A stretch of DNA of 64,000 nucleotides from an uncultured delta proteobacterium (GTDB lineage: Bacteria > Myxococcota > Myxococcia > Myxococcales > Myxococcaceae): the NCBI GenBank assembly GCA_963776345.1, contig CAVZMH010000020.1:64001-128000 (forward strand), read 5' to 3'. The notes below the pieces were generated by a model. It was not told where the DNA came from. It was given only the letters and a program-made list of their open reading frames with translations, and searched no databases. This document shows, piece after piece, positions 49,943 through 63,056 of the stretch; position 1 is the first letter of the stretch; every line of letters begins with the position of its first letter. The translations under genes were made by a program, and so were the position numbers.

Positions 49943-50018
<76 letters not shown>

Positions 50019-50043
50019 CAAGAACGCCTCACCCACGTGACGC

Positions 50044-51036
50044 TCAGCCGCTGCCTGCGACGCGTGGGCCATCGTCGTCCCGCCGTCCCTCTCGCCAGGC
50101 CGCGGGCGGGACGCCCACCACCTTCTTGAAGGCCCGGCTGAACGCGGCCTCCGAGGCGTAGCCGACCTCGACCGCGGCCTCGAACACGCTGACGTTCCGG
50201 GTACGGAGCAGCGTGGCCGCGAGCTGCATCCGCCAGCGCGTCAGGTACTGCATCGGGGCCTCGCCCACCAGGTGCGCGAAGCGCTCGGCCAGCGCCGAGC
50301 GCGAGAGCGCGGCCTCCTTCGCCAGCGCCTCCACGGTCCACGCCTCCGCCGGGCGGTCGTGCAGCGCCGCGAGCGCCCGGCCGACGTACGGGTCGCGCAG
50401 CCCGGCGAGCCAGCCGGTCTGCCCCGGAGGGAGCGAGGCCACGTAGCGGCGGATGACCTCCACGAACATCAGCTCGCTCGCCCGCGCCAGAACGCACTCG
50501 CCGCCGGTCCGCCCGGCCGAGGACTCCGACACCGCGAGCCGGGCCAGCGCCTCGAGCCATTCGCCGCCGTCGCGCGCGCTCACCCGGAGCACCCGGGGGA
50601 GGGTCGCGAGCAGCGGATTGAAGGGCCGGGCGTCGCAGCCCACGAAGCCGCAGACCAGCTGCGTGCGCTCGTCGCCCCCTCCCTCGCGGAGAAGGAACGG
50701 CAGCTGGCTCCCGACGGGGCGGCGGTAACCGTCGAGCGAGATCTGGCCGCGCATCCCCGGGCTGCTGGAGATGGTGTGCGGGTCGCCGTGCGGGAAGGCG
50801 ATGATGTCTCCCTCCCGGAGCAGGACCGGCTCCTCGCCGACGATGCCCCCCCAGCAGCTGCCCCGGGTGATGAGGTGGTACTCGATCACGTGGTCGATGC
50901 CCGGCATGACGTGTGGAGCGACCTCGCCCGCCGGCAGCGCCTCCGCGGCGAAGGGGGCCGAGGCATCGATGGAGAAGTAGACCGCCCCGGTCAGGCGGAC
51001 CGCGCGCAGCACGTCCGAGAGGACATCGGTGCTCAT
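50044..51036 (-). CDS. AraC-family transcriptional regulator with cupin sensor domain
   Basis: DVLSDVLRAVRL, LSRSALAERF, PMQYLTRWRM, GYASEAAFSRAFK. Confidence 0.93.
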   Translation of the reverse strand: MSTDVLSDVLRAVRLTGAVYFSIDASAPFAAEALPAGEVAPHVMPGIDHVIEYHLITRGSCWGGIVGEEPVLLREGDIIAFPHGDPHTISSSPGMRGQISLDGYRRPVGSQLPFLLREGGGDERTQLVCGFVGCDARPFNPLLATLPRVLRVSARDGGEWLEALARLAVSESSAGRTGGECVLARASELMFVEVIRRYVASLPPGQTGWLAGLRDPYVGRALAALHDRPAEAWTVEALAKEAALSRSALAERFAHLVGEAPMQYLTRWRMQLAATLLRTRNVSVFEAAVEVGYASEAAFSRAFKKVVGVPPAAWREGRRDDDGPRVAGSG

Positions 51037-51198
51037 CGCGGGGTCCGGTTGCGACGCGTCGTGTCGTCCCCGCCGCCGTCGGCGGCCGCGCGGAACGGAC
51101 GGTGGAGCAAGAACTGCGGAGTGCCGGTCAAGCGCGCCTCCGGGGCCACGGACATCAAGAGCCCCGTCGCACGCACCCTTACCCCAGGAGTTCCGTTC

Positions 51199-52035
51199 GT
51201 GACCACCGCAGCCCCCCTGACCGTCGCCCCCGCGCCGGACCTCGCCGCCATCAAGACCCGCCAGCAGGCCACCTGGGCCAGCGGGGACTACGCCGTCATC
51301 GGCACCACCCTCAGCATCGTCGGCGAGTCGCTCTGCGAGGCGGTGGACCTCCGCGCCGGGCAGAACGTCCTGGACGTCGCCTGCGGGAACGGCGCCGCCA
51401 CCCTCGCCGCGGCGCGTCGGTTCTGCACGGTGACGGGTCTGGACTATGTCCCCTCGCTCCTGGCCCGCGCCGAGGAGCGCGCCCGCGCGGAACGGCTGGA
51501 CATCGCCTTCGTCGAGGGAGACGCCGAGGCGCTTCCCTTCCGCGACGGCCAGTTCGACGCGGTGCTCTCCACCTTCGGGGTGATGTTCACCCCCGACCAC
51601 CAGCGGGCGGCGCGCGAGCTGGCGCGGGTGGTGCGCCGGGGCGGGAAGATCGGCCTGGCCTGCTGGACCCCCGACGGGTTCGTGGGCCAGATGTTCGCGC
51701 TGGTGGGCCGCACCATGCCACCCCCCGCCGGCGTCAAGCCCCCGCCGCTCTGGGGCACCGTCCCCCACTGCGAGGAGCTCTTCGGCGACACCGCCGCCTC
51801 GATGCAGGCCCAGCAGCGCGAGTTCGCCTTCCGCTACCTGTCGCCCGAGCACTTCATCGACGTGTTCCGCCGGTTCTACGGGCCGACCCACAAGCTCTAC
51901 GGGGCGCTGCCGGCAGACAAGGCGGCCACCTTCACCGGGGAGCTCACCGAGCTCATCCGCCGATTCAATCGCTCCGGCGACGGGACGGTGGTGATCCCCT
52001 CGAAGTACCTGGAGCTGGTCGTCACCCGGCGCTGA
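51199..52035 (+). CDS. Class I SAM-dependent methyltransferase (UbiE-like), divergent from the AraC gene
   Basis: AGGAG RBS + GTG; WASGDY, VLDVACGNG, GDAEALPF, FDAVLSTFGVMF. Confidence 0.9.
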   Translation: MTTAAPLTVAPAPDLAAIKTRQQATWASGDYAVIGTTLSIVGESLCEAVDLRAGQNVLDVACGNGAATLAAARRFCTVTGLDYVPSLLARAEERARAERLDIAFVEGDAEALPFRDGQFDAVLSTFGVMFTPDHQRAARELARVVRRGGKIGLACWTPDGFVGQMFALVGRTMPPPAGVKPPPLWGTVPHCEELFGDTAASMQAQQREFAFRYLSPEHFIDVFRRFYGPTHKLYGALPADKAATFTGELTELIRRFNRSGDGTVVIPSKYLELVVTRR

Positions 52036-52134
52036 GGCGAGACGCGGCAAGCCCGCGGGCGATCCGACCTTCTCGGCGCCCGCGGGCGAACCGGCGAATG
52101 CCTGCGACAACGTCAACAGACGAGTGAGGCACCC

Positions 52135-52251
52135 CGCAATCGATGCGCCGCCGGGTGTCCAGACCCGCAGGCCCTGCAGCGCCGTGGGGCGCGAAACACC
52201 GTCCTCCCCTGGGTACAACGAGGGAGCCACCGCCGTGGCTCGACCGATGCA
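52135..52251 (+). promoter_or_regulatory. Sigma54-type promoter with tandem enhancer boxes, upstream of CBS gene
   Basis: CGCA-ATCGA-TGCG (52135), CGCA-GGCCC-TGCA (52166); TGGCTCGACCGATGCA with GG-N10-GC at 52237-52250. Confidence 0.72.
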
Positions 52252-52284
52252 CGATCTGGCCTCGACCCCGGAAGGAGGTCAGCC

Positions 52285-52758
52285 ATGCGCGTCGAGGACA
52301 TCATGACCAAGCAGCTCGAGACGTGCCGGGCGGACGATTCGCTGTGGCACGTGGCACGGAAGATGTGGGACCACGACATCGGGTGCCTGCCAGTGGAGGG
52401 AGCCGACGGGCGAGTGACCTCGGTCGTCACCGACCGGGACATCGCGATGGCGGCGTACCTCCGCGGCAAGCCGCTCGCCGAGCTCAAGGTCTCCGAGGCC
52501 ATGTCGCACCGGCTGGTGACGGTCCAGCCCACCGACCCACTCCGCGTCGCCGAGGACCGGATGCGCTCCGAGCAGGTGCATCGCATCCCGGTGGTGGACG
52601 CGCTCGGGTTCCTCAAGGGGATGGTGACGGTGAACGACCTGGCGCATCACCTCCGGACGCTGAAGTCGCTGGAAGGCCTCGAGCCGGCGGAGGTGGCCGG
52701 AACGGTCGCCGCCATCAGCAGCCCGCGCTCGGCGGCCTCGGGGACCGCCCAGGCCTGA
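52285..52758 (+). CDS. CBS-domain protein
   Basis: AGGAGG RBS; VEDIMT, IGCLPV, VVTDRDI, HRIPVVD, MVTVNDL. Confidence 0.92.
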   Translation: MRVEDIMTKQLETCRADDSLWHVARKMWDHDIGCLPVEGADGRVTSVVTDRDIAMAAYLRGKPLAELKVSEAMSHRLVTVQPTDPLRVAEDRMRSEQVHRIPVVDALGFLKGMVTVNDLAHHLRTLKSLEGLEPAEVAGTVAAISSPRSAASGTAQA

Positions 52759-52796
52759 TCGGTGCGGGCGGGCGCGGACCCGCCGGCCCCTGATGC

Positions 52797-53906
52797 TCAG
52801 AGCGTCCGTCGTTCGGGCCGCGCGGCCACCTCACCCACCGTGGGTGGAGAGGCCATGTGCCTGATGGCTGGCGCGACCGAGAGGACGAACGCGCCGAGCA
52901 GGCCGAGGGCGACGAGGAGTGCCCGGGGATGGATCGGGAGCAGCGCGTCCCCCGAGCTCAGGGAGGGAACGACCAGGATCTGGAAGACGAGCCAGATCCC
53001 GACGAGCTGCCCGACCAGCACGGCCGCGAGAGCCCGGGGCGAGGACTTGCCCACCGGGTGCAGCAGTGCCGCGAAGGGCGCCGCGAAGACCAGCATCAGC
53101 ATCGTGAGCCCGGCCCATCCCCAGCCCCCCTGCATTCGCCGGAGGAGGAACCCGGTCTCGTCGGGCAGGTTCCCGAACCAGATGGTGAGGAACTGCGCGG
53201 CGAAGAGGTAGCTCCAGAAGACGGTCACCGCGAGCAGCAACGCGACCGCGTCGCTCCGGTCGGAGGGCGAGAGCTCGCCACGGGCGAGCCCGAGGAGCAC
53301 CAGGAGGTCCGCACCGGCGAGGAAGGTGCTGACGAAGACGAACGGCCCGATCACCGTGCTCCCGAAGACCGGATCGGGGCCGAGCACGAAGTCGAACGCC
53401 CAGATCGACAGGACGATGGTGTAGCCGATCAGGAAGGTCACCGCGGAGGCGAGCGCCAGCTCCGCGGGCGGTCGGGAGCGCGGGCCGAACCAGACCCACG
53501 CCGCGCCGAAGAGCACCGTGCCGAGCACGATCTCCCGCGCCACCAGCACCGGCGGGGCGAGCCAGCCCCGGCTGCCGGCCACCCACGGCGCGGTCTCGGC
53601 GCCCGCGAGGACGACGACCAGCAGCGCCAGCGCGACCGGGGCGAAGACCACCGGTGCACGCCCGAGCGCCACCAGCGCTCGCGCCCAGCGGGCAGGGATG
53701 ATGCGGAACATCGCCCCGAAGGCGACCGCGCCGAGCGCGCCACCGGCGAAGAACATCCAGCTGGCGATGAGCGTCCCGTAGGTGCCCGGGCTCCGCCCTC
53801 CGCCGAGCCCGGAGAGGAATGCCGCCGCGCCGGCCACGACCGCACCGCCGGCCACCGCCGCACCCCGCCGACCGACTGCAGCCTCGAGGTCCCGTCCCCA
53901 GCTCAT
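52797..53906 (-). CDS. actF: Alternative complex III subunit ActF-like membrane protein
   Basis: Multi-TM; AFDFV...P.FGSTVIG, FWSYLFAAQFLTIWFGNLPDE; last gene of the act operon. Confidence 0.8.
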   Translation of the reverse strand: MSWGRDLEAAVGRRGAAVAGGAVVAGAAAFLSGLGGGRSPGTYGTLIASWMFFAGGALGAVAFGAMFRIIPARWARALVALGRAPVVFAPVALALLVVVLAGAETAPWVAGSRGWLAPPVLVAREIVLGTVLFGAAWVWFGPRSRPPAELALASAVTFLIGYTIVLSIWAFDFVLGPDPVFGSTVIGPFVFVSTFLAGADLLVLLGLARGELSPSDRSDAVALLLAVTVFWSYLFAAQFLTIWFGNLPDETGFLLRRMQGGWGWAGLTMLMLVFAAPFAALLHPVGKSSPRALAAVLVGQLVGIWLVFQILVVPSLSSGDALLPIHPRALLVALGLLGAFVLSVAPAIRHMASPPTVGEVAARPERRTL

Positions 53907-54427
53907 GGCTGCTGCCCTCCCTGTCCGGGGCCGCTCGTCCCGGTGCAGCCCTCGCGCTGCAGCGCCCGGACGAAGGCGACCAGGTCCCAGCGGTCCCTGG
54001 CGCTCGTCCCCTCGCGCATGGAGGGCATGGCCTTCCCCCCCGCGATCAGCGTGCCGTAGAGGTACCCGTCGCTCCGGCGGCAGATGGACAGGTGGCGAAG
54101 ATTCGGAGCGGGCGGAAACTCCCTGGAGACCGGGCCATCTCCCTTGGCCTCCGGGCCGTGGCAGGGTGTGCAGAACCGGGAGAAGAGCACCTTCCCGTGG
54201 GCCTCCGCTGCGGAGTCGAAGGGCGCGGGAGGCCGCGCGTCTTCCACGTCGTCCCGGTCGGCCACCGTCTCCACCCCGCCGAGCGGCACCGCGCCCTCGG
54301 GAGCCGGCCTGGCCTCGGTGAGCGGCTGGAGCGAGGGCTGCTGCTCCATGCTCGCGGGCCAGAGGAAGCCACCCGACGTGCACCCGGAGAGCACCAGCGC
54401 GCCGAGCACCACCGGGCGGAGGTTCAT
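53903..54427 (-). CDS. actE: Alternative complex III monoheme cytochrome c lipoprotein ActE
   Basis: Lipobox LSGC, CTPCHG...GDG, DG.LY..L..G..AMPS, DRW.LVAFVRALQ. Confidence 0.83.
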   Translation of the reverse strand: MNLRPVVLGALVLSGCTSGGFLWPASMEQQPSLQPLTEARPAPEGAVPLGGVETVADRDDVEDARPPAPFDSAAEAHGKVLFSRFCTPCHGPEAKGDGPVSREFPPAPNLRHLSICRRSDGYLYGTLIAGGKAMPSMREGTSARDRWDLVAFVRALQREGCTGTSGPGQGGQQP

Positions 54428-54918
54428 GGCCTCCCCTCCTGCAGCGCGCGGAGCACCGCGGCGGCCAGTGGACCCTCGAACCGCTCTGCCGGCACCACGA
54501 CCACGATCTGCTCGCTGTTCACCGCCGCCCTCGCCGCGGCGGCCACCCGCCGCCTCGCTCCTGCCGCCAGGAGGACCAGGGCGATGAAGTTCGCCGCCCC
54601 GGCGAAGAGCATCGTCAGCTCGAACATGATCACCCCGAAGGCGGGCCAGGCCAGGATCGGCTTGCCCCCGACCACCAGGCCCAGCGAGCGCGAGGTGAGC
54701 GCCTGCAGCAGCGCCGCGCAGGTCAGCCCCGTCACCGCGCCGGCGAGCGCGACCTTGCCCAGGACCGGCCAGGGTCCGGGGCGCCCGGTGAGGTGGACCA
54801 CCGGGAAGGGCGCGGGGCTGACCACCCGTGCGTCGGTCACTCCGGCCTCGTGGAGGCGCCGCAGGGCGCGGGCCGCCGCGTCGGGGTCGGCGAAGAGGGT
54901 CACCCGCGGCTCAGGCAT
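54424..54918 (-). CDS. actD: Alternative complex III subunit ActD (DUF3341)
   Basis: SPAPFP, LVVGGKP...WPAF.VIMFELTMLFA; two TM helices. Confidence 0.85.
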   Translation of the reverse strand: MPEPRVTLFADPDAAARALRRLHEAGVTDARVVSPAPFPVVHLTGRPGPWPVLGKVALAGAVTGLTCAALLQALTSRSLGLVVGGKPILAWPAFGVIMFELTMLFAGAANFIALVLLAAGARRRVAAAARAAVNSEQIVVVVPAERFEGPLAAAVLRALQEGRP

Positions 54919-56245
54919 GGCCGGGCTCCATCCCGGGCTCGTGGGCCGCGGCGTGCTGCCGCTCCATCGTCTCGGCCACCGAGATCGAGGGGAAGATCTT
55001 GATGAAGAGCAGGAAGAGGGTGAAGAACCAGCCGAAGCCGCCGAGGCAGATCAGCAGCTCCGGCACGGTGGGGCGGTAGAACCCCCAGTTCTGCGGCAGG
55101 TAGTGGTGGGCGAGGGTGGTGACGATGAACATGAAGCGCTCGAACCACATCCCGACCGAGACCAGCACCGAGATGATCACCAGCGCCGGGAGGCTCCGGC
55201 GCACCCGGCCCCAGAAGCAGGCCAGCGGCGCGACGCTGTTGCAGACGATGACCAGCCAGAAGACCCAGGCGTAGGTTCCGGTGGGCCGCCAGCGGAACAC
55301 CTCGGCCTCGGCCTGGCTCCCGTGGAAGAAGGCCATGAAGAACTCGGTGGCGTAGGTGAAGGTCATCACCAGCGAGGCCGCCAGGAGCAGCTTGGAGAGC
55401 ATCTCGAAGTGCTCGGGCCGGATGTACCGCTCCAGCCGGTAGCCGCGGCGCAGTCCGGCGAGGAGCAGGATGGCCATCGCGATGCCGGAGAAGATGGCCC
55501 CGGCCACGAAGTACGGGGCGAAGATCGACGAGTGCCACCCCGGCATCACCGACATGGCGAAGTCCCAGGAGACGACGCTGTGCACCGAGACCGCCAGGGG
55601 GATGACCACCCCCGCGAAGATGGGGTACGCCTTCTCGAACAGCGCCCACTCCGCGTCGGTGCCGGAGAAGCCGAGCGACAGCACGCGGTAGAGCGGCCGC
55701 CGCCATCCCGTCACCCGCCGGGCCAGCATCGCCAGGTCCGGCAGCATCCCCATGTAGAGGAACAGCGCGCTCACCGTGACGTAGGAGCTGATGGCGAACA
55801 CGTCCCAGGTGAGCGGGGAGCGGAAGTTCGGCCAGAGCTGGCGCTGGTTGGGGTAGGCGAGCACGAAGTAGAAGAGCCACGAGCGCCCGATGTGGATGAT
55901 CGGGTACAGGCCGGCGGTGAGGATGGTGATCACCGTCATCGCCTCCGCCGACCGTCCGATCGCGGCCCGCAGCGGCGACCGGGCGAAGAAGAGGATGGCC
56001 GAGACCAGCGTGCCGGAGTGGCTCACGCCGATGAAGAAGACGAAGGTGGTGATGAGCGCCCCCCACATCACCGGCTCGTTCAGGCCGAAGACGCCCAGGC
56101 CCCGGCGGAGCGCCAGCGACCAGGCCACTCCTCCCACCACCACCAGGCCCGCGGAGAGCCCGAGCCCGAGCCAGTAGCGCCAGCTGGTCCGGGACATGGT
56201 CCCCACCATGTCGCGCTCGATGCGGGTGAGGTCAGGGGCGTCCAC
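54911..56245 (-). CDS. actC: Alternative complex III quinol-interacting subunit ActC (NrfD/PsrC family)
   Basis: WG..I.TFVFFIGVSHSGTLVSAIL, R.AEAMT, HIGR.W, NFRSPL.WD, SVHSVVSWDFA, WHS.IFAPYFVAGAIFSG, GMWFERF. Confidence 0.92.
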   Translation of the reverse strand: MDAPDLTRIERDMVGTMSRTSWRYWLGLGLSAGLVVVGGVAWSLALRRGLGVFGLNEPVMWGALITTFVFFIGVSHSGTLVSAILFFARSPLRAAIGRSAEAMTVITILTAGLYPIIHIGRSWLFYFVLAYPNQRQLWPNFRSPLTWDVFAISSYVTVSALFLYMGMLPDLAMLARRVTGWRRPLYRVLSLGFSGTDAEWALFEKAYPIFAGVVIPLAVSVHSVVSWDFAMSVMPGWHSSIFAPYFVAGAIFSGIAMAILLLAGLRRGYRLERYIRPEHFEMLSKLLLAASLVMTFTYATEFFMAFFHGSQAEAEVFRWRPTGTYAWVFWLVIVCNSVAPLACFWGRVRRSLPALVIISVLVSVGMWFERFMFIVTTLAHHYLPQNWGFYRPTVPELLICLGGFGWFFTLFLLFIKIFPSISVAETMERQHAAAHEPGMEPGHA

Positions 56246-56246
56246 G

Positions 56247-59003
56247 TCAGGCCTTCTCTCGTCTGCGGGCGAGGTAGAGCACGCCCGGCTGGGTGTTCAG
56301 CTCCTCGAGGAGCCGGTAGGCCCGGCCGTCGCGCGCGAGGCGGGAGATCTCCGAGTCCGGGTCGTGGAGGTCTCCGAAGACGATGGCCCGGGTGGGGCAG
56401 GAGGCCGCGCAGGCGGAGATGACCTCGCCGTCGCGCACCTTGCGGTTCTCCATCTTCGCCTTCTCCTGCCCGGCGGTGACCCGCTGCACGCAGAGGGTGC
56501 ACTTCTCGCTCACCCCGCGCTCGCGCACGCTCACGTCCGGATTGAGCCCCAGGCGGGACAGCCCGTGGTGAGGCCAGTCGAAGAAGTTGAAGCGGCGCAC
56601 GCCGTAGGGACAGTTGTTCTCGCAGTACCGGGTGCCGATGCAGCGCGGGTAGATCTGGGCGTTGAGCCCCTCGCGGGTGTGGTACGTGGCGAAGGTCGGG
56701 CAGACCACCTCGCACGGCGCGTTGGTGCAGTGCTGGCACGAGAGCGGAAGGAACGACGGCTCGACGCCTCCCGGCCGCGGATCGAGGTAAGCGTGGATCC
56801 GCATCCAGGACATCGACCGGCCGCGCTGGACCTCCTCGGCGCCCACCACCGGCAGGTTGTTCTCGACGTAGCAGGCGGCGGTGCAGGTTCCGCATCCCGT
56901 GCACCGGTCGAGGTCCACCGCCATCCCCCAGCGGTGCTCGGGGTGCTCCACCGGCGAATACATCTGGGGGAGCGGATGGCGGGGAGGCAGGCTCGGCTGG
57001 GCCCCGCTCACGCTGCGCGCCAGCTCCCGCCCGTGCTGCTCCGAGGAGCCCTCGACCAGCGACGAAGGTTTCCTCTCCCCCGTGCGGCGGGCGGTCACCC
57101 GCACCTCGAGGCCGGGCGGGCCCTCTCCCTCGAGCAACCGTGCAGCGTCGGGCGCAGGGAGCGCGGCCACCCCGGCACGGACGCCCGCGGTGACGTGCGC
57201 CGGCAGGGCCACCTCGCCGCCCGGACCGCTCAGCGCCACCACGTCGCCCTCCTGCACACCCAGCGGTGCCGCCGTGCTCGGATGGAGCTCGATCCAGCCC
57301 GTCCACGCATAGCCGGACAGCGGATCGGGGATCTCCTGGAGGAGGGCGCTCCGGGGGACCCGACCGTCGAGGTGGCGGAGGCCGGGCATCGCCAGCAGGG
57401 TGAGCCCGCCGGCCGGACCGCGGGACTTTGCGGGTCCGGGGAGCTCGGCGAGAGCGCCCGAGGCGAGCGCCACCGGAACGGCAGCCGCCTCGCTCAGCTT
57501 CAACCCGTGCTCCCGCTCCTTGACGTCGTAGGCCGCGCGCACCACGTCGGCCCAGGTCCCCTCGGGGAGCCCGGCGGTCCGTCCCAGCGTCCGTGCGGCT
57601 CCGAGCAGCATGTCGGCCGCGGCGCGGGTGTCCAGCACCGGCGTCATCACCGGCTGCTGCACACCGGTCACCCCTGGCCGGGCCGGGGCGTCTCCCCAGG
57701 ACTCGAGGAAGTGGTGATCCGGCAGGACCAGGTGCGCCCGGCCGGAGGTGTCATCGAGCTCCGTGGTCAGCGCCACCACGAAGGGGATCTGTCCGAGGGC
57801 CGCGGCGAAGCTCGGGTGCCCGCTGCCGATCGGATCCGCGTGGTGGAGCACCAGCGCGCCGATCGCCCCCGCGCGCGCCTGGCGCGCCAGCTCGGCCAGG
57901 TCCCACCCGGGCGGCTCCTCCGGGCGGGAGAGGAAGGCCAGGGCGGCGTTTCCCAGCAGCGCGTTCAGGACGGTCACTGCCTCGGCCAGCCGGCCCGCCT
58001 GGCTTCCGGCCAGGGCGCGTCCCGGCCCGAGAACCAGCCCCGGGCGATGGTCGAGCAGCGCCTGCGCCAGCCCCGAGATGCGCTCCGCGGTCAGCCCGGT
58101 GCGCGCCGCGACCGTCCTGGGGTCGAAGCCGGCCAGCCGCTCGCCCAGCGCGGCCCCGAGGTGAGGCGCGAGGTCCGGTGGGGGCGCCCGCTGGAGGACC
58201 TGACGACAGAGCCCCAGCACCAGGGCCAGCTCGCTCCCCGGCTCCATCGCGAGCCACTCGTCGCACGAGGCGGCGGTCAGCGACAGCCTCGGGCCCACGT
58301 AGATCGAGCGGCCACCCGCGGCGCGCTGCTCGGCGAGTCCCCGGGCGGACTCGACCGGCGAGCCCTCCTCGACGAAGTCGTCGCCCACCGAGAGGATGAG
58401 GCGGGCGGCCTCGAGCCGGCGCACCGGCACCGCATCGGACCCGAGCGCCCGCCGCTGTCCCTCGCGGAGCCAGGGACGCGCGGTGGGCTCGAACACCGCC
58501 CGGTGCGCCGGGGGCTGTCCCAGCGCTCCGAGCCAGGCGGTCAGGAAGCCCCCGAGCAGCCCCGGCTCGTGGCGGGTGAGCACCACCACCGCCCTTCCCG
58601 AGTCGAGGGCGGTCTTCAGGCCGCCCGCCAGCGCCTTCTCCGCCTCGGGCCAGCCCGTCGGCTTCCCGGCCGCCCATGGACTGGCGAGCCGGCCCGGACC
58701 GTAGAGCGACTCGATGGAGGCCTGGCCGGCGGGGCAGAGGCCTCCCCGGCTCACGGGATGCTCCGGGTTTCCCTCCACCATCACCGCCCGTCCCTCGCGC
58801 ACCCGGGCCGTCATGCCGCAGGCCGCGGGACAGGCGCGGCAGGTGGTCCGGTACCACCGGGCCACCCCGGCGACCGCGTCGTCCGGAGGCGTGACGTAGG
58901 GCACCATCGAGCGTGGCAGCCGGCTCTTGCATCCCTCGACCAGGCTGGTGCCCAGCACCGTCGCCGCCGAGCCGAGGAACGTCCGTCTTCCCAGTCGCTT
59001 CAT
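56247..59003 (-). CDS. actB: Alternative complex III subunit ActB (molybdopterin-oxidoreductase-like + Fe-S fusion)
   Basis: Tat motif RRTFL; HFLESWGD; C-terminal CTGCGTCTAAC, CQHC..APCE.VCP, CIGTRYCENNCP, EKCTLC...ACAASCP. Confidence 0.9.
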   Translation of the reverse strand: MKRLGRRTFLGSAATVLGTSLVEGCKSRLPRSMVPYVTPPDDAVAGVARWYRTTCRACPAACGMTARVREGRAVMVEGNPEHPVSRGGLCPAGQASIESLYGPGRLASPWAAGKPTGWPEAEKALAGGLKTALDSGRAVVVLTRHEPGLLGGFLTAWLGALGQPPAHRAVFEPTARPWLREGQRRALGSDAVPVRRLEAARLILSVGDDFVEEGSPVESARGLAEQRAAGGRSIYVGPRLSLTAASCDEWLAMEPGSELALVLGLCRQVLQRAPPPDLAPHLGAALGERLAGFDPRTVAARTGLTAERISGLAQALLDHRPGLVLGPGRALAGSQAGRLAEAVTVLNALLGNAALAFLSRPEEPPGWDLAELARQARAGAIGALVLHHADPIGSGHPSFAAALGQIPFVVALTTELDDTSGRAHLVLPDHHFLESWGDAPARPGVTGVQQPVMTPVLDTRAAADMLLGAARTLGRTAGLPEGTWADVVRAAYDVKEREHGLKLSEAAAVPVALASGALAELPGPAKSRGPAGGLTLLAMPGLRHLDGRVPRSALLQEIPDPLSGYAWTGWIELHPSTAAPLGVQEGDVVALSGPGGEVALPAHVTAGVRAGVAALPAPDAARLLEGEGPPGLEVRVTARRTGERKPSSLVEGSSEQHGRELARSVSGAQPSLPPRHPLPQMYSPVEHPEHRWGMAVDLDRCTGCGTCTAACYVENNLPVVGAEEVQRGRSMSWMRIHAYLDPRPGGVEPSFLPLSCQHCTNAPCEVVCPTFATYHTREGLNAQIYPRCIGTRYCENNCPYGVRRFNFFDWPHHGLSRLGLNPDVSVRERGVSEKCTLCVQRVTAGQEKAKMENRKVRDGEVISACAASCPTRAIVFGDLHDPDSEISRLARDGRAYRLLEELNTQPGVLYLARRREKA

Positions 59004-59016
59004 CCTCGGGGCTCCC

Positions 59017-59661
59017 TCAACGGTGGCAGACCACGCAGTCGCGCCGGACGTTCCTGTCCTCGTGGCAGGTGAGGCACCGGCCCATGGTGAAGGGCTCGTC
59101 CTGCCGGACGGTCCCCATCGTCGCGACGTCGCCGTGGCACTCGCTGCAGGCGACGGGCTCGCGGAAGTGCAGGTGCACCTGGTGGGTGAAGCGGACGAAG
59201 TCGGGAAGCTCGAAGACCCGTGTCCAGCGGAGCGGCTGGTCCGCGCGCACGCGGGCGGCGAGCACCTGGACCGCCGGGTTCTCCTTGGCCACGAACTTGT
59301 GGCAGCCCATGCACTTCTTGCCCGAGGGCAGACCGGCGACCGGAGACCGGACCGCGTCGGCGTGGCAGCTCAGGCAGGGGATGGCACAGTCCCCGGCGTG
59401 GACCCGGTGGTCGAAGGGGATCTCGTCCACCGGGGCGGGCGTGCCGGGAGGCCCGAGCACCACCTGGATCGGCGGGGCCGGGCTCGACGCGGCCGGCCCC
59501 CCTTCGGGCTCCGGTGCGCACCCGCGGCGGGTGCGCGACGAGGCTGGAAGCGGTGTCCGAACTCCCGCCGGCGGGGCGAGCTCGTCCGGAGTCGCTGGCT
59601 GCTGGCAGCCGGGGGCGGCCGCCAGCACGGCGAGCAGGAGCCCGGCGATGAGAGGCCGCAT
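59017..59661 (-). CDS. actA: Alternative complex III pentaheme cytochrome c ActA
   Basis: Five CxxCH (CLSCH, CMGCH, CSECH, CLTCH, CVVCH); PFDHRVH, LPDFVRFTHQVH, TMG.C; lipoprotein-like signal. Confidence 0.88.
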   Translation of the reverse strand: MRPLIAGLLLAVLAAAPGCQQPATPDELAPPAGVRTPLPASSRTRRGCAPEPEGGPAASSPAPPIQVVLGPPGTPAPVDEIPFDHRVHAGDCAIPCLSCHADAVRSPVAGLPSGKKCMGCHKFVAKENPAVQVLAARVRADQPLRWTRVFELPDFVRFTHQVHLHFREPVACSECHGDVATMGTVRQDEPFTMGRCLTCHEDRNVRRDCVVCHR

Positions 59662-59669
59662 CCCGTCGT

Positions 59670-60257
59670 TCAGCGCTTCAGCGTCAGGTTCTGGGTGACG
59701 GTCTGGCCGGCCGCGACGGTGATCGGCTTGTCAGGCGCCTTGAGGTGGGAGTTCCAGACCGCGAGCTGGTAGGTGCCGGGTGGCACGTGGGCGATGGTGA
59801 AGCCGCCCTTCTTGTCCACCGCGGCGGCGTACGGACCGGGGGCGACGAAGATGAAGGCCAGCATCTCCGGATGCATCGAGCAGAGCTGGGTGTATGCGCC
59901 CTCCTGCTGGAACTTGTACGTCCGCTCCTCGTCCTGCTTGAAGCTCCCGAGGTTGTATCCCTCGCCGTCGGGTGAGTAGACGTTGTGGGCCACGTTGTCG
60001 TGGTTGAGGAACTTGACGCTGTCCCCCTGGGTGATCACCAGAACGTGGGGGACGAAGGTCATGGACTTCTGGTCCATCGCCTTGGTCTCGGGAGTCCTGG
60101 GCGGGGCCTTCACGCCCTTCAGGTAGACCACCGTCTCCTCCAGGTACTTGGAGGGCGTCACCTCGACCTTCCCGGTGATCGTTCCGTCGGCGGCCAGCGC
60201 CGAGGAGGTCAAGGCAAGAGCGGCGAGGGTCAGGAGATTGCGCATCGATGTCATCAT
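59670..60257 (-). CDS. Periplasmic cupredoxin (type-1 blue copper) inserted in a carboxypeptidase-regulatory-like beta-sandwich
   Basis: Signal peptide; FVPHVLVI..GDSV.F.N.D...HNV...CSMHPEM gives a His/Cys/His/Met ligand set. Confidence 0.82.
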   Translation of the reverse strand: MMTSMRNLLTLAALALTSSALAADGTITGKVEVTPSKYLEETVVYLKGVKAPPRTPETKAMDQKSMTFVPHVLVITQGDSVKFLNHDNVAHNVYSPDGEGYNLGSFKQDEERTYKFQQEGAYTQLCSMHPEMLAFIFVAPGPYAAAVDKKGGFTIAHVPPGTYQLAVWNSHLKAPDKPITVAAGQTVTQNLTLKR

Positions 60258-60282
60258 TTCCTCGTTTCCTTCAGGATGGGTT

Positions 60283-61698
60283 TCACATGGCCCACGCGAG
60301 AAACAGGCCGATGCTCTCGAACTCGGAGCGGTTGTTCTCGCCGCTCGACGGAGGCGCGATCTGCAGCGGGCCCCACGGCGTGGCACCGCCCTGGTATGCC
60401 TGCGGCCCGGCGCCGGTGGTCGGGAACCCCTTGGCCGACTCGTAGTCGAACACGGCGACCAGCTTGATGTTGGGACGGATCAGGAAGGCGATGCCCGGCT
60501 GGACGTGCAGGTCATGGACCGTCGGACCGCCCTCGGGTGTCAGCCACACGGTCTCCACCCGGAGCGCCGGCACCATCCAGGGGAAGATGACGTAGGAGAG
60601 CTCGCCGAACAGCACCTTGGCCTTCACGGGGCCGCCGGTGTCGGTGCCGTGGCCGTGCGATTCGCTGTAGTAGCCCACGTTGAGCTCGGCCGAGCCCAGC
60701 TGGCCGCGAACGCCGACGCCATAGGTGTTGGCGGTGTCGCTGGCGACGGGGGCTCCTGCCGTGGTGTCGAAGCGCGAGTTCGACTGGTACGCGAAGCCGT
60801 AGATTCCCAGCGCCGTCTCGGCCCAGGGCCGCTCCGGATCCATCCCGCTGGACTCCTCGCCGTCCAGACGCATGCCGCCGATCTTGAAGCCCACCCGCCC
60901 GTAGAAGTTGTCCGTCGGGGCGAGCCCGTGGGCGATCTTCCCGGCGTTGAGGCCCACCGCGTAGTCGATCCGGCCGGCGATGACGCCGTTGAGCTCGACG
61001 CCGGTGTAGTTGTCCACCAGCGTCCAGGAGTTCGAGTCACCCCAGTAGATGCCGGTCACCGGCACGGTGGTGACCATCGCATCGCCCAGGTACGAGGAGT
61101 GAGGCCCGAACTGGGTGACGTTGGGGAAGCCGTGGCCAACGATGAGGTTGAAGAGGTGCTTCGGACCGACGATGTCGTTGAAGAGCAGCTGCGCGTGCTC
61201 GACATCCACGCCGTCACTGCTGAAGGTGACCTCGAACCAGGCCGTGATGGTGTCGTCGAACGCTGCGCCGGCCCAGATGTGGCCCTCGGCCGCGAGGTCC
61301 TGGAGGGTGAAGTGCGTGGCGCTTCCGTCGGCGCTCTTCGCTGCCTCCCCGGCGCTCGAGGAGCTGGAGGGGATGATGAGCGCCTGGCCGTTGACGCCCA
61401 CGGAGAGGGGGATGGCCGCCAGGATCGAGTCGGGCCACGCGGTCTTGGGGAAGGTCTTCTTGTTCGCCTCCTGTCCCATCGGCACCTGCTCGGCCTTGAT
61501 GTAGTCCGAGTCCGTGCCGGGGAAGCGATAGCCGTTGCGCCGGAACGCCTCTCCGAACGGATTGAGCTTCGGATAGACGGTGTGACAGGTCAGGCAGCTC
61601 GTCTGGTACTTGCGCGCAAAGGCCGGGATCGCCCCCGCGGGGGCTGCGGCCGTGAGCACCACGACGACGAGAAGCCCACCGAGAGCACGCCTCGACAT
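60283..61698 (-). CDS. Cyc2-like fused monoheme cytochrome c-porin outer membrane protein
   Basis: Signal peptide then AIPAFARKYQTSCLTCHTVYPKLNPFGEAFRRNGY; remainder has alternating amphipathic beta-strands rich in Gly/aromatic residues, ending IGLFLAWAM. Confidence 0.82.
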   Translation of the reverse strand: MSRRALGGLLVVVVLTAAAPAGAIPAFARKYQTSCLTCHTVYPKLNPFGEAFRRNGYRFPGTDSDYIKAEQVPMGQEANKKTFPKTAWPDSILAAIPLSVGVNGQALIIPSSSSSAGEAAKSADGSATHFTLQDLAAEGHIWAGAAFDDTITAWFEVTFSSDGVDVEHAQLLFNDIVGPKHLFNLIVGHGFPNVTQFGPHSSYLGDAMVTTVPVTGIYWGDSNSWTLVDNYTGVELNGVIAGRIDYAVGLNAGKIAHGLAPTDNFYGRVGFKIGGMRLDGEESSGMDPERPWAETALGIYGFAYQSNSRFDTTAGAPVASDTANTYGVGVRGQLGSAELNVGYYSESHGHGTDTGGPVKAKVLFGELSYVIFPWMVPALRVETVWLTPEGGPTVHDLHVQPGIAFLIRPNIKLVAVFDYESAKGFPTTGAGPQAYQGGATPWGPLQIAPPSSGENNRSEFESIGLFLAWAM

Positions 61699-61752
61699 GG
61701 TTCGCTCCATTCCCGACCGCAGCTGGGAAACGTCGGATGTCGCGAGGCCCGG

Positions 61753-61910
61753 TGCAAGGACGAAGCCCCGCGCGGGTTCGAGGTTGGAACGGCACGGCAG
61801 TTCAGATGAACCACACGCGGCGCGCGGGTCTTGGCCGAGACGCAAGCAAATGACTTCATCAGTTACGCAAAGCCTGCGAACGACGAAAGGAATGCACGCA
61901 GAGACTGCGC
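61753..61910 (-). promoter_or_regulatory. Putative sigma54 promoter with tandem enhancer boxes for the cyc2-act operon
   Basis: Minus-strand GGGCTTCGTCCTTGCA (GG-N10-GC, 61767-61754); CGCA-AAGCC-TGCG (61866) and CGCA-GAGAC-TGCG (61897), 31 bp apart. Confidence 0.65.
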
Positions 61911-62126
61911 TTTTGCTTGCATGTCTCTGGCATCAGAAATCGAGTTGCATATGCGCAGGTTCGTTCGGGCAGGCGGTGATCCGGCACGCCGCAGACAGGA
62001 CAGCGGTGGTCACCCGGCTCGCTCTGCAGGGCCTTCGCGACCGAGGGCCGCCACGGGGCTCAGCGCCGCGTCCTCGAGCCGGGGCCACACCACTCGCTGA
62101 GTCGCGCGGCTGGCTCGGCCTGAGGT

Positions 62127-63056
62127 TCAGGCCGATGCGCCGCCGTGTGCCGGCTGCTCCGGGCGTTTCTCAGGTGTGGTCCACGGCAGGGTCGACATCA
62201 TTTCCCCAGTCACCCAGGTCGCGAGGAGGATGAGGAGCAGCGGCACCCACGTTCCGCCGATGCTCCGGAACATCGTCATGCTTCGCTGCACCAGCGCGGC
62301 CACGACCACCAGGTCGAGCACTGCGACCACCAGGGTGAAGGCGACGGCCGTGTCTCGCGCCTCCCGGGCGCCGGGCAGCCGGAAGTAGTGCCAGGCAATC
62401 GCGACGAAGATGAGCGGGGCCACGAAGGCGTGGACCCACATCGCCAGGGACGTGCTCCCGAGCGCGAGGAGCCCTGCCATCACCGCTCCGCACGCGGCCC
62501 AGCCCGCGACGGCATGCCCCAGAAGGCGGAGCGGCGAGGCCGCCGGAGGATCCACCGCCGGGCGCGGTTCCGCTGTCGGAAGCGCCCGGGCCACGTCCGC
62601 CGCCCAGGTGCGGACCCGGTCCGGGTTCCGCCAGTCACCGCCGTGGGTCCTCGCCATCGCGCTCGCCGGAAAGCCGCGCGCGTCGGCCAAGAGGCGACCC
62701 CCGAACGTCACATGCTCCTGCGCGCCGACCAGCTCGGCGAGCGCCCGCACCCGTCCCGTGGGAGGGATCGCCCCGCGATCCGCCGAGTCGTCGAGCGGCC
62801 CGCTGGAGAAGAACCACACCGGAACCTTGCGCAGCGCCTTCCGATGTCTCCAGACGAAGCGCCGGGCGTCCGCGTGCCAGCGATTCGCGTAAAGCGCGCC
62901 TCCGACGATGACCGCATCGAAGCGTGTCTCCCGGTGCGCCTCCGACGGCGGGAGAAGCACCGGCTCGTGCCCCGATCCGGCCAGCACCGCGCCCACCATC
63001 CGTGCGATTCCCTCGGTACCGCCCCGCTTCGAACCCCAGGTCACGAGGACGCGCAT
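62127..63056 (-). CDS. HemG-like long-chain flavodoxin fused to a C-terminal 4-TM domain
   Basis: AAGGA RBS; VTWGSKRGGTEGIA, DAVIVGGALY, VWFFSSGPL, HVTFGGRL, DWRN; hydrophobic tail. Confidence 0.8.
   Translation of the reverse strand: MRVLVTWGSKRGGTEGIARMVGAVLAGSGHEPVLLPPSEAHRETRFDAVIVGGALYANRWHADARRFVWRHRKALRKVPVWFFSSGPLDDSADRGAIPPTGRVRALAELVGAQEHVTFGGRLLADARGFPASAMARTHGGDWRNPDRVRTWAADVARALPTAEPRPAVDPPAASPLRLLGHAVAGWAACGAVMAGLLALGSTSLAMWVHAFVAPLIFVAIAWHYFRLPGAREARDTAVAFTLVVAVLDLVVVAALVQRSMTMFRSIGGTWVPLLLILLATWVTGEMMSTLPWTTPEKRPEQPAHGGASA

Follow-up and report, generated by a model that had tools for sequence, protein, structure and literature searches.

Eight genes at positions 52797-61698 of the window (the whole stretch of DNA analysed here, 64,000 nucleotides, positions 64,001 to 128,000 of contig CAVZMH010000020.1 in assembly GCA_963776345.1, from an uncultured member of the Myxococcaceae) encode a predicted Cyc2-like cytochrome-porin, a predicted periplasmic cupredoxin and a predicted alternative complex III (ACIII). 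We found that the linkage of these three elements is real, conserved and more than chance, recurring in two phyla. Because the recurring unit consists of a Cyc2-like protein, a cupredoxin and a complex III, the set is likely to act as an electron wire that connects, in series, the quinone pool with the outside of the cell. That these proteins are redox partners we consider quite probable, although we infer their physical partnerships, as well as the direction of flow and the substrate; our tentative preference is for electron export. The host genome (G000) has a size of 5.1 Mb, a GC content of 71.7% and a completeness of 98%.

As originally predicted, the eight genes are co-directional and separated by overlaps or by gaps shorter than 30 bp (28, 8, 13, 1, -8, -4 and -4 bp, in order from cyc2 to actF), and presumably they are co-transcribed. 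All eight open reading frames (ORFs) lie on the minus strand and are free of internal stops, with GC contents at third codon positions of 0.91-0.98. Signal peptides, including those given below, were read by eye.

60283..61698, minus strand: predicted Cyc2-like fused monoheme cytochrome-porin, 471 aa; motif at residues 23-45, predicted 16-strand barrel
59670..60254, minus strand: predicted periplasmic type-1 cupredoxin with carboxypeptidase-regulatory-like beta-sandwich, 194 aa; H90, C125, H128, M131
59017..59661, minus strand: ActA, pentaheme cytochrome c; 5 CxxCH, lipobox-like Cys19
56247..59003, minus strand: ActB, fused B1+B2; Tat-like/lipobox N-terminus, four C-terminal Fe-S motifs
54911..56245, minus strand: ActC, NrfD-family quinol-site subunit; W61, I65, F68, P115, H118, L145, D148, D228
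54424..54918, minus strand: ActD; PF11821
53903..54427, minus strand: ActE, monoheme cytochrome c; 1 CxxCH, lipobox-like Cys, distal MPSM motif
52797..53906, minus strand: ActF, divergent membrane subunit; tblastn to the genome's other two ACIII operons

The 471-aa protein carries AXPXFAR[Q/K][T/Y] before CXXCH, a motif described by Keffer et al. (10.1101/228056) as unique to Cyc2, and PXL after CXXCH. The original prediction had pointed to this motif, which is present in full; only its spacing is refined, as four residues separate K30 from C35, in agreement with the published motif counting. The protein has one CxxCH (C35) and two cysteines in total, and the whole pattern is kept in 107 of 115 aligned homologues. 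An AlphaFold2 model of the protein has 16 strands (predicted local distance difference test score, pLDDT, 83.7) and is closest to 16-stranded porins, OprP first (Z 23.6, root-mean-square deviation 3.5, 317 aligned), in agreement with the beta-barrel body expected from the sequence. OprO, the paralogue of OprP, is the template reported for Acidithiobacillus Cyc2 (PMC13741234). The heme domain is modelled at low confidence, with parts below 50 pLDDT. A single N-terminal heme motif fused to a predicted 16-strand barrel is the architecture of Cyc2, and motif and model together support the assignment of the protein as a predicted Cyc2-like cytochrome-porin. It has no Pfam, NCBIfam or PDB sequence match; homologue searches returned only unnamed or hypothetical proteins, with no named Cyc2, and found no plasmid homologue. 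Motif, single N-terminal heme and predicted OprP/OprO-like barrel of 16 strands are common to A. ferrooxidans Cyc2, Mariprofundus Cyc2 PV-1 and Leptospirillum Cyt572. In contrast to these, the gene for the putative cytochrome-porin described here occurs in a heterotroph-type myxobacterium and is linked to ACIII and not to an oxidase.

Among homologues, invariant Glu, Asp and His residues are numerous in the barrel (e.g. E138, H140, E156, E167, H200 and D206). Judged by strand alternation, E138, H140, E156 and E167 would face the lumen, and the long loop that joins strands 5 and 6 would hold H200 and D206. When the Cyc2-like protein was co-folded with heme and the cupredoxin, the score was 0.05 against a mark of 0.32.

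The four predicted copper ligands of the second protein (H90, C125, H128 and M131) are invariant in 52 of 52 aligned homologues. The protein matches PF00127 above the cut-off, its fold is predicted confidently (pLDDT 96), and the His...Cys-His-Met set on a cupredoxin fold is that of a type-1 copper site; its second domain is a carboxypeptidase-regulatory-like beta-sandwich. The ligand loop, C-x2-H-x2-M, appears amicyanin-like and not rusticyanin-like, the loop of rusticyanin being longer. Amicyanin, pseudoazurin and a Nitrosopumilus cupredoxin are the closest solved relatives, and rusticyanin is not among the listed PDB or NCBIfam matches. The ligand assignment of the original prediction thus stands, whereas its parallel with rusticyanin is functional only; auracyanin is the closer precedent for the pairing of ACIII with a copper protein.

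The six act genes had been read as ActA with five hemes followed by ActB to ActF, and this reading holds: a pentaheme ActA, ActB1+B2 with Fe-S motifs, ActC, ActD, a monoheme ActE and ActF lie in one cluster. ActF has no Pfam or NCBIfam match and is assigned through tblastn matches (E 1e-21 and 8e-16) to the ActF-position genes of both further ACIII operons in the genome. Four ActC chains of known structure are matched by ActC (E 1e-106 to 1e-113), which keeps eight residues of the Roseiflexus menaquinol pocket (W84, I88, F91, P138, H141, L168, D171 and D252 in Roseiflexus; PMC7439408), which are invariant in 27 of 27 sequences; Roseiflexus I249 is Val in the operon's ActC. These comparisons support a complete ACIII with an intact quinol site, whose activity is predicted. 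The N-terminal CX2CX3CX27C motif of ActB (C55/58/62/90) is kept in 42 of 43 loci and occurs also in ActB of the same genome's cbb3-linked ACIII, for which reason we rejected it as a marker of direction. A lipoprotein ActA was likewise rejected as a defining trait, as N-termini vary among homologues. The quinone reductase QrcABCD (Qrc) was considered and set aside: scores for QrcA, QrcB and QrcC fell short of the NCBIfam cut-offs (61.5/180, 191.5/440 and 232/400), and the presence of ActD, ActE and ActF rules out its four-subunit layout.

A GTDB genome scan with the Cyc2-like protein confirmed at least 556 relatives; locus counts rest on the best 80, some of which share a genome, so that they are not 80 independent cases. 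Within this set, ACIII adjoins the Cyc2-like gene at 51 loci, 21 are without ACIII and 8 end at a contig edge, giving adjacency in 51 of 72 assessable loci; the first two genes of the operon, whose synteny with act genes elsewhere had been expected, therefore do keep that company. The cupredoxin is present at 76 of the best 80. Two gene orders occur among the 51 linked loci, 45 with cyc2 first and six with cyc2 after actF. Titles among the best 80 name Anaeromyxobacteraceae, Myxococcaceae, Kofleriaceae, Thermoanaerobaculaceae and Terriglobia. The full cassette is carried by two strains in culture, Anaeromyxobacter terrae SG22 and A. oryzisoli SG63 (L012, L021). No oxidase gene was matched at any of the 51 ACIII-linked loci, 25 of the 45 cyc2-first loci extending at least 1.5 kb past actF, and on this count a rus-type Cyc2-oxidase operon was rejected for them. 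At L008, L018, L040 and L048 several cassette genes are split by frameshifts, probably sequencing errors, and the split genes were left out of alignments and trees.

As these counts start from Cyc2, a further survey removed that selection. An ActC profile, which in its own reference set separates the subfamily (at least 679 bits) from other ActCs (at most 559 bits), was run against 301 genomes from the phylum of the window. It yielded 25 subfamily genes in 21 genomes: 17 are linked to Cyc2, five lie on contigs broken upstream, two have the cupredoxin only, and one is flanked by mono- and multiheme cytochromes with a possible barrel protein alongside. In this phylum sample, then, 17 of 20 assessable ActC genes of the subfamily are Cyc2-linked. 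Five ActC genes at 587-596 bits were excluded as a separate group; none has a Cyc2-like gene at its locus, and cbb3 genes lie beside three. The distribution of the cassette is patchy: of 12 further genomes in the host's genus, one has a full-length-type match, and two large genera gave no Cyc2-like match at all (0/19 and 0/29). Among 250 sampled Acidobacteriota genomes none reaches the subfamily threshold, and 24 have related ActC genes at 598-659 bits. Twenty of these related genes were inspected; nine have adjoining oxidase genes, and the cassette appears rare in this phylum because none of the 20 is Cyc2-linked.

In ActC trees, the Cyc2-linked sequences form lineages separate from the sampled oxidase-adjacent ActCs. 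They branch first if the outgroup root holds, a root that falls on a long outgroup branch, and the trees were built without ActC from Rhodothermus, Chloroflexi or iron oxidisers. Ancestral status of the Cyc2-linked ACIII was not supported, as the approximately unbiased test leaves one clade unrejected (p 0.089). A Cyc2 tree (FastTree) requires at least eight switches between two ACIII types among 42 labelled rows, which suggests that the partner modules were re-paired while the Cyc2-ACIII linkage persisted. The ActA-F architecture, the quinol-site residues and the precedent of a blue-copper acceptor are shared with the ACIIIs of Roseiflexus and Chloroflexus (menaquinol:auracyanin) and of Rhodothermus and Flavobacterium (oxidase-linked). 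The ACIII described here differs in having no reaction centre or oxidase partner, in the separate lineages of its ActC and in an ActA that often has a lipobox-like signal.

The operon is a new arrangement of known parts. A route from Cyc2 through Cyc1 to ACIII was proposed for Mariprofundus and Gallionellaceae (Barco 2015, Kato 2015; PMC5566968, PMC4643136), a proposal later weakened by low ACIII expression (PMC7029218). That model has the same outer-membrane-to-quinone route and the ActB CX2CX3CX27C motif; its link comes from co-occurrence and expression, with a cytochrome carrier, a split ActB and autotrophic hosts. The operon described here differs in its contiguous genes, its cupredoxin carrier, its fused ActB and its hosts, most of which are without RuBisCO. 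The Acidithiobacillus rus operon (cyc2-cyc1-cup-coxBACD-rus; PMC10654088) likewise co-encodes Cyc2 with copper carriers and a respiratory complex, which there is an oxidase and here is ACIII, with an amicyanin-like copper loop. Cyc2 matches in Myxococcota have been mentioned without gene context in the available text of 10.1101/2022.03.26.485925 and PMC12442345. We found no contiguous cyc2-cupredoxin-act operon in our searches of the open full-text literature, nor in the available portions of PMC6344600, PMC10654088, PMC3534657, PMC10732223 and 10.1101/2022.05.06.490989; paywalled papers, supplements and figshare trees might hold one.

Besides the Cyc2 operon, the host genome has two ACIII clusters, which makes three: the cluster at C12 is linked to a caa3-type oxidase, and that at C15 is divergent from cbb3 genes. 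For comparison across hosts, we used a carrier set of 49 genomes, comprising one row per genome of ACIII-linked loci and the host genome. A COX1-family gene lies within 11 kb of 0 of 48 intact Cyc2-type ActC genes, against 39 of 53 other ActC genes, in a count that leaves out 12 fragment or outgroup-type rows. A second ActC occurs in 46 of the 49 carriers, and an oxidase-adjacent ActC in 37. Among the carriers, mostly genomes of unstated completeness, strong RuBisCO matches were found in two and weak RuBisCO-like matches in three; other carbon-fixation pathways were checked in the host genome only, which has no RuBisCO or CdhC match. MtrC/MtrF-like domains occur in 16 of a set of 21 carriers, compared with 90 of 280 genomes outside that set, a comparison confounded by kinship (41 of 43 in one family). 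The host genome also encodes NosZ, NrfA, a cytochrome bd oxidase and a NiFe uptake-type hydrogenase (C16:448902-450953, C14:116389-120807, C10:34950 and C3:144841); NirK, as a candidate sink, had no match above the cut-off.

A real rus-like analogue exists in the same genome. At C3:113566-122428 (L001) a divergent second Cyc2-like gene is accompanied by a cupredoxin, two diheme cytochromes and heme-copper oxidase subunits, as in the Acidithiobacillus rus operon, and this oxidase operon is without a complex III. Such oxidase-linked Cyc2 clusters are conserved in the genus and found also at L085 and L087-L090, with L086 having the cluster only in part; the ACIII-linked and oxidase-linked Cyc2 modules occur independently. 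A further cluster, at C22:15948-32735, is likely an Mtr/Omc-type conduit. It opens with genes for three monoheme cytochromes of small size and for a cytochrome b that probably has a Rieske partner; long genes of multiheme lipoprotein type, one barrel-like gene and genes for cytochromes with 13 and 9 hemes come next; at L079, a similar multiheme set is divergent from the Cyc2-ACIII operon.

On direction, the original prediction had left uptake from Fe(II), minerals or humics beside export to an extracellular acceptor. The full chain it proposed agrees with the conserved serial gene set; direct use of minerals is less likely, because a lone heme enclosed in a small porin is expected to reach dissolved substrates only (PMC9040806). 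We tentatively favour, somewhat short of an even chance, electron export from ACIII through the cupredoxin to Cyc2 over the uptake variants weighed below, which taken together fall just short of even. Outward flow is favoured because the characterised ACIIIs in the literature consulted are quinol oxidases, including a menaquinol:auracyanin activity with a blue-copper acceptor, with hemes up to +230 to +439 mV and menaquinol near -70 mV (PMC7439408), because carriers are mostly without RuBisCO, because the Cyc2/cupredoxin pair occupies the acceptor slot that oxidases fill in the sister clusters, and because MtrC/MtrF-like domains are frequent in carriers. There is no need to invoke reverse flow to fix CO2, since RuBisCO is rare in carriers and the host genome gave no RuBisCO or CdhC match. 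In the favoured scheme, ACIII would transfer electrons from menaquinol to the cupredoxin. The cupredoxin would pass electrons to the heme of the Cyc2-like protein, which would in turn reduce an extracellular acceptor that is small, soluble and of high potential; chelated Fe(III) or Mn is the probable candidate. For the copper site, we assumed the potential of amicyanin-like copper, about +250 to +300 mV. The pair would thereby fill the slot taken by the caa3-type or cbb3 oxidase beside the genome's other two ACIII clusters, and a heterotroph could keep ACIII-coupled proton pumping when O2 is short.

These arguments need to be interpreted cautiously, as several observations weigh against export. 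All 49 carriers encode a COX1-family protein (the family includes NO reductases), so that this ACIII may serve an oxidase encoded elsewhere; an argument from strictly anaerobic hosts was rejected on the same count. NosZ, NrfA and the bd oxidase are other electron sinks in the host genome, the C3 paralogue of Cyc2 lies in an oxidase operon, and the Rieske/cytochrome b and Mtr-like multiheme cluster at C22 could already serve export. A diheme cytochrome stands in front at five loci without ACIII, and at L070:2-6726 the same Cyc2 subfamily and its cupredoxin are embedded in a cbb3 oxidase operon. Cyc2 proteins tested biochemically, from all three clusters, are Fe(II) oxidases in the reports available. 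Potentials reported for Cyc2 range from -130 mV for the heme of Ghiorsea Cyc2 (PMC13692758) up to +560 mV at pH 4.8, and a typical copper site could not reduce a heme as low as -130 mV. The invariant acidic residues would moreover suit a cation such as Fe2+, commoner in soluble form than Fe(III).

Several of the same observations are accommodated by a branch point, in which Fe(II) or some other reduced solute is the electron donor to Cyc2, ACIII runs forward, and both reduce one cupredoxin that in turn supplies an oxidase or NosZ from elsewhere in the genome. Such a scheme has no uphill step, known Cyc2 proteins keep their role as Fe(II) oxidases, and sinks are at hand in the COX1 family of every carrier and, in the host genome, in NosZ and the C3 oxidase operon without a complex III; the cbb3 operon of L070 shows the subfamily in such company. 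However, this arrangement requires an unlinked fourth partner and leaves unexplained a distinct ACIII subfamily that stays with Cyc2 and was not found beside an oxidase (0/48). An ACIII next to an oxidase is already present in no fewer than 37 of the 49 carriers, and the C3-type module and the Cyc2-ACIII operon occur independently. We regard it as doubtful, though the better of the two uptake variants.

The other variant, somewhat less likely still, is uptake with ACIII reversed, from Fe(II) through Cyc2 and cupredoxin back to menaquinone; a mixotroph would draw on this flow for NADH or for reductases fed by quinol. It agrees with the published Cyc2-Cyc1-ACIII model (PMC5566968, PMC4643136), the same serial gene logic suits it, the ActB CX2CX3CX27C motif noted in iron-oxidiser ActB1 is kept in 42 of 43 loci, and a Rieske/cytochrome b variant of the cassette (below) includes an NAD(P)-binding flavo-Fe-S protein. 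Yet the motif, found also in the cbb3-linked ACIII, does not mark direction; uphill flow to menaquinone would cost proton-motive force; reverse activity is termed highly speculative in the literature available to us; and ACIII expression is weak in Zetaproteobacteria mats (PMC7029218). Strong RuBisCO matches are confined to two carriers, and reverse electron flow for autotrophy is unlikely because most carriers are without RuBisCO. A non-respiratory role, in which the barrel is a redox-coupled porin for Fe/Cu acquisition or sensing whose heme is re-reduced by ACIII through the cupredoxin, would suit the many invariant Glu, Asp and His residues and the sensor kinases in or beside 11 of the best 80 loci (four with CxxCH), but is improbable, as no metal transporter or TonB genes recur among the neighbour clusters, handling of a trace metal would hardly repay the cost of a dedicated complex of six subunits, and every recurring partner is respiratory (ACIII, Rieske/cytochrome b, oxidases).

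Loci without ACIII, or without Cyc2, include several other arrangements. A Rieske/cytochrome b/multiheme complex takes the place of ACIII at four of the best 80 loci and at L182. At L036, L049, L066 and L083, cup-cyc2 is followed by genes for a FAD/NAD-binding Fe-S protein, a Rieske protein, a cytochrome b and an 8-heme cytochrome, which make up a Rieske/cytochrome b complex and perhaps an NAD(P) module. A second azurin-family protein occurs at seven loci without ACIII: at L061, L064, L065, L069, L075, L077 and L084, cyc2-cup is followed by an azurin-family lipoprotein-like cupredoxin, with no complex III. ACIII clusters without Cyc2 at L170:1-16129 and L192:7518-19903 adjoin multiheme cytochromes and barrel-like genes, a porin-cytochrome conduit possibly replacing Cyc2 there. 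At L145 (G068:C265) and G073:C8, one contig holds both a Cyc2-type and a canonical-type ACIII, some 13-14 kb apart. A kinase and a sigma-54 regulator are inserted between cyc2 and cup at five loci, and six further loci have a divergent kinase upstream; the window has neither arrangement. Divergent histidine kinases with CxxCH in their N-terminal region, at L005:1145-3289, L019:7580-11125, L055:2070-3989 and L076:7642-9744, are possible heme c redox sensors. In the host genome, genes at C20:140785-142056 and C2:~80100-82700 (L004) combine an N-terminal CxxCH (YPW...GY..CxxCH) with a long barrel-like body. Each adjoins a gene that we take to be YceI-like, and the C2 copy of the barrel-like gene is followed by a third cupredoxin of the same family.

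The gene order is unlikely to be an assembly artefact, because the operon has the same order in a near relative (~98% identical), whose contigs in run X1 cover 51000-61065 with overlaps and resume at 61067. The operon is bordered by two features:

52285..52758, plus strand: CBS-pair gene, convergent, operon border and not an operon member; ORF and domain match
61699..62126, minus strand: upstream intergenic region; terminator-like hairpin at 61896-61910

As had been predicted, the operon ends against the convergent CBS gene, which lies 38 bp from the actF stop, and no oxidase subunit gene follows actF at the locus. Upstream, a co-directional gene for a Flavodoxin_5-domain protein (PF12724) with a hydrophobic C-terminus lies 428 bp away, at 62127-63008 on the minus strand. 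The protein is presumably HemG-like, and its gene is not among the recurring neighbour clusters of homologous loci. The hairpin at 61896-61910 may separate the operon from this gene, a weak indication given four hairpins in the region against 2.4 expected. No sigma-70, sigma-54, FNR or CRP motif was found at 61699-62126. Across 55 upstream regions, strict sigma-54, FNR and CRP patterns gave no match; under a looser sigma-54 pattern there were 7 sense and 5 antisense matches, from which we claim no common motif. Beyond the CBS gene, at ~50000-52035, the ORF list alone gives an AraC-like regulator (minus strand) divergent from a methyltransferase-like gene (plus strand).

A route from Cyc2 to ACIII has been hypothesised for a decade from co-occurrence and expression, with the place of ACIII called highly speculative in the sources available. 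Both the link and its direction become directly testable with a cassette that is contiguous and conserved, names its copper carrier and occurs in two Anaeromyxobacter strains available in culture. Outward flow, if true, would be the opposite of what is known for Cyc2, which serves as a marker of iron oxidation even though most divergent homologues lack a settled function. Inferences on iron cycling from metagenomes of soils and peat would change if electrons are exported through this subfamily, or if it serves heterotrophs whichever way they flow. More speculatively, and rather unlikely in our view, a Cyc2-family protein may be the outward terminal reductase of a dedicated, possibly early-branching ACIII and, with the oxidase-linked Cyc2 at C3, allow heterotrophic myxobacteria to run soluble iron or similar shuttles as a rechargeable battery, quinol electrons going out when conditions are anoxic and electrons returning to O2 when they are oxic. 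Were this the case, Cyc2 matches in soil and peat metagenomes would not mark iron oxidisers.

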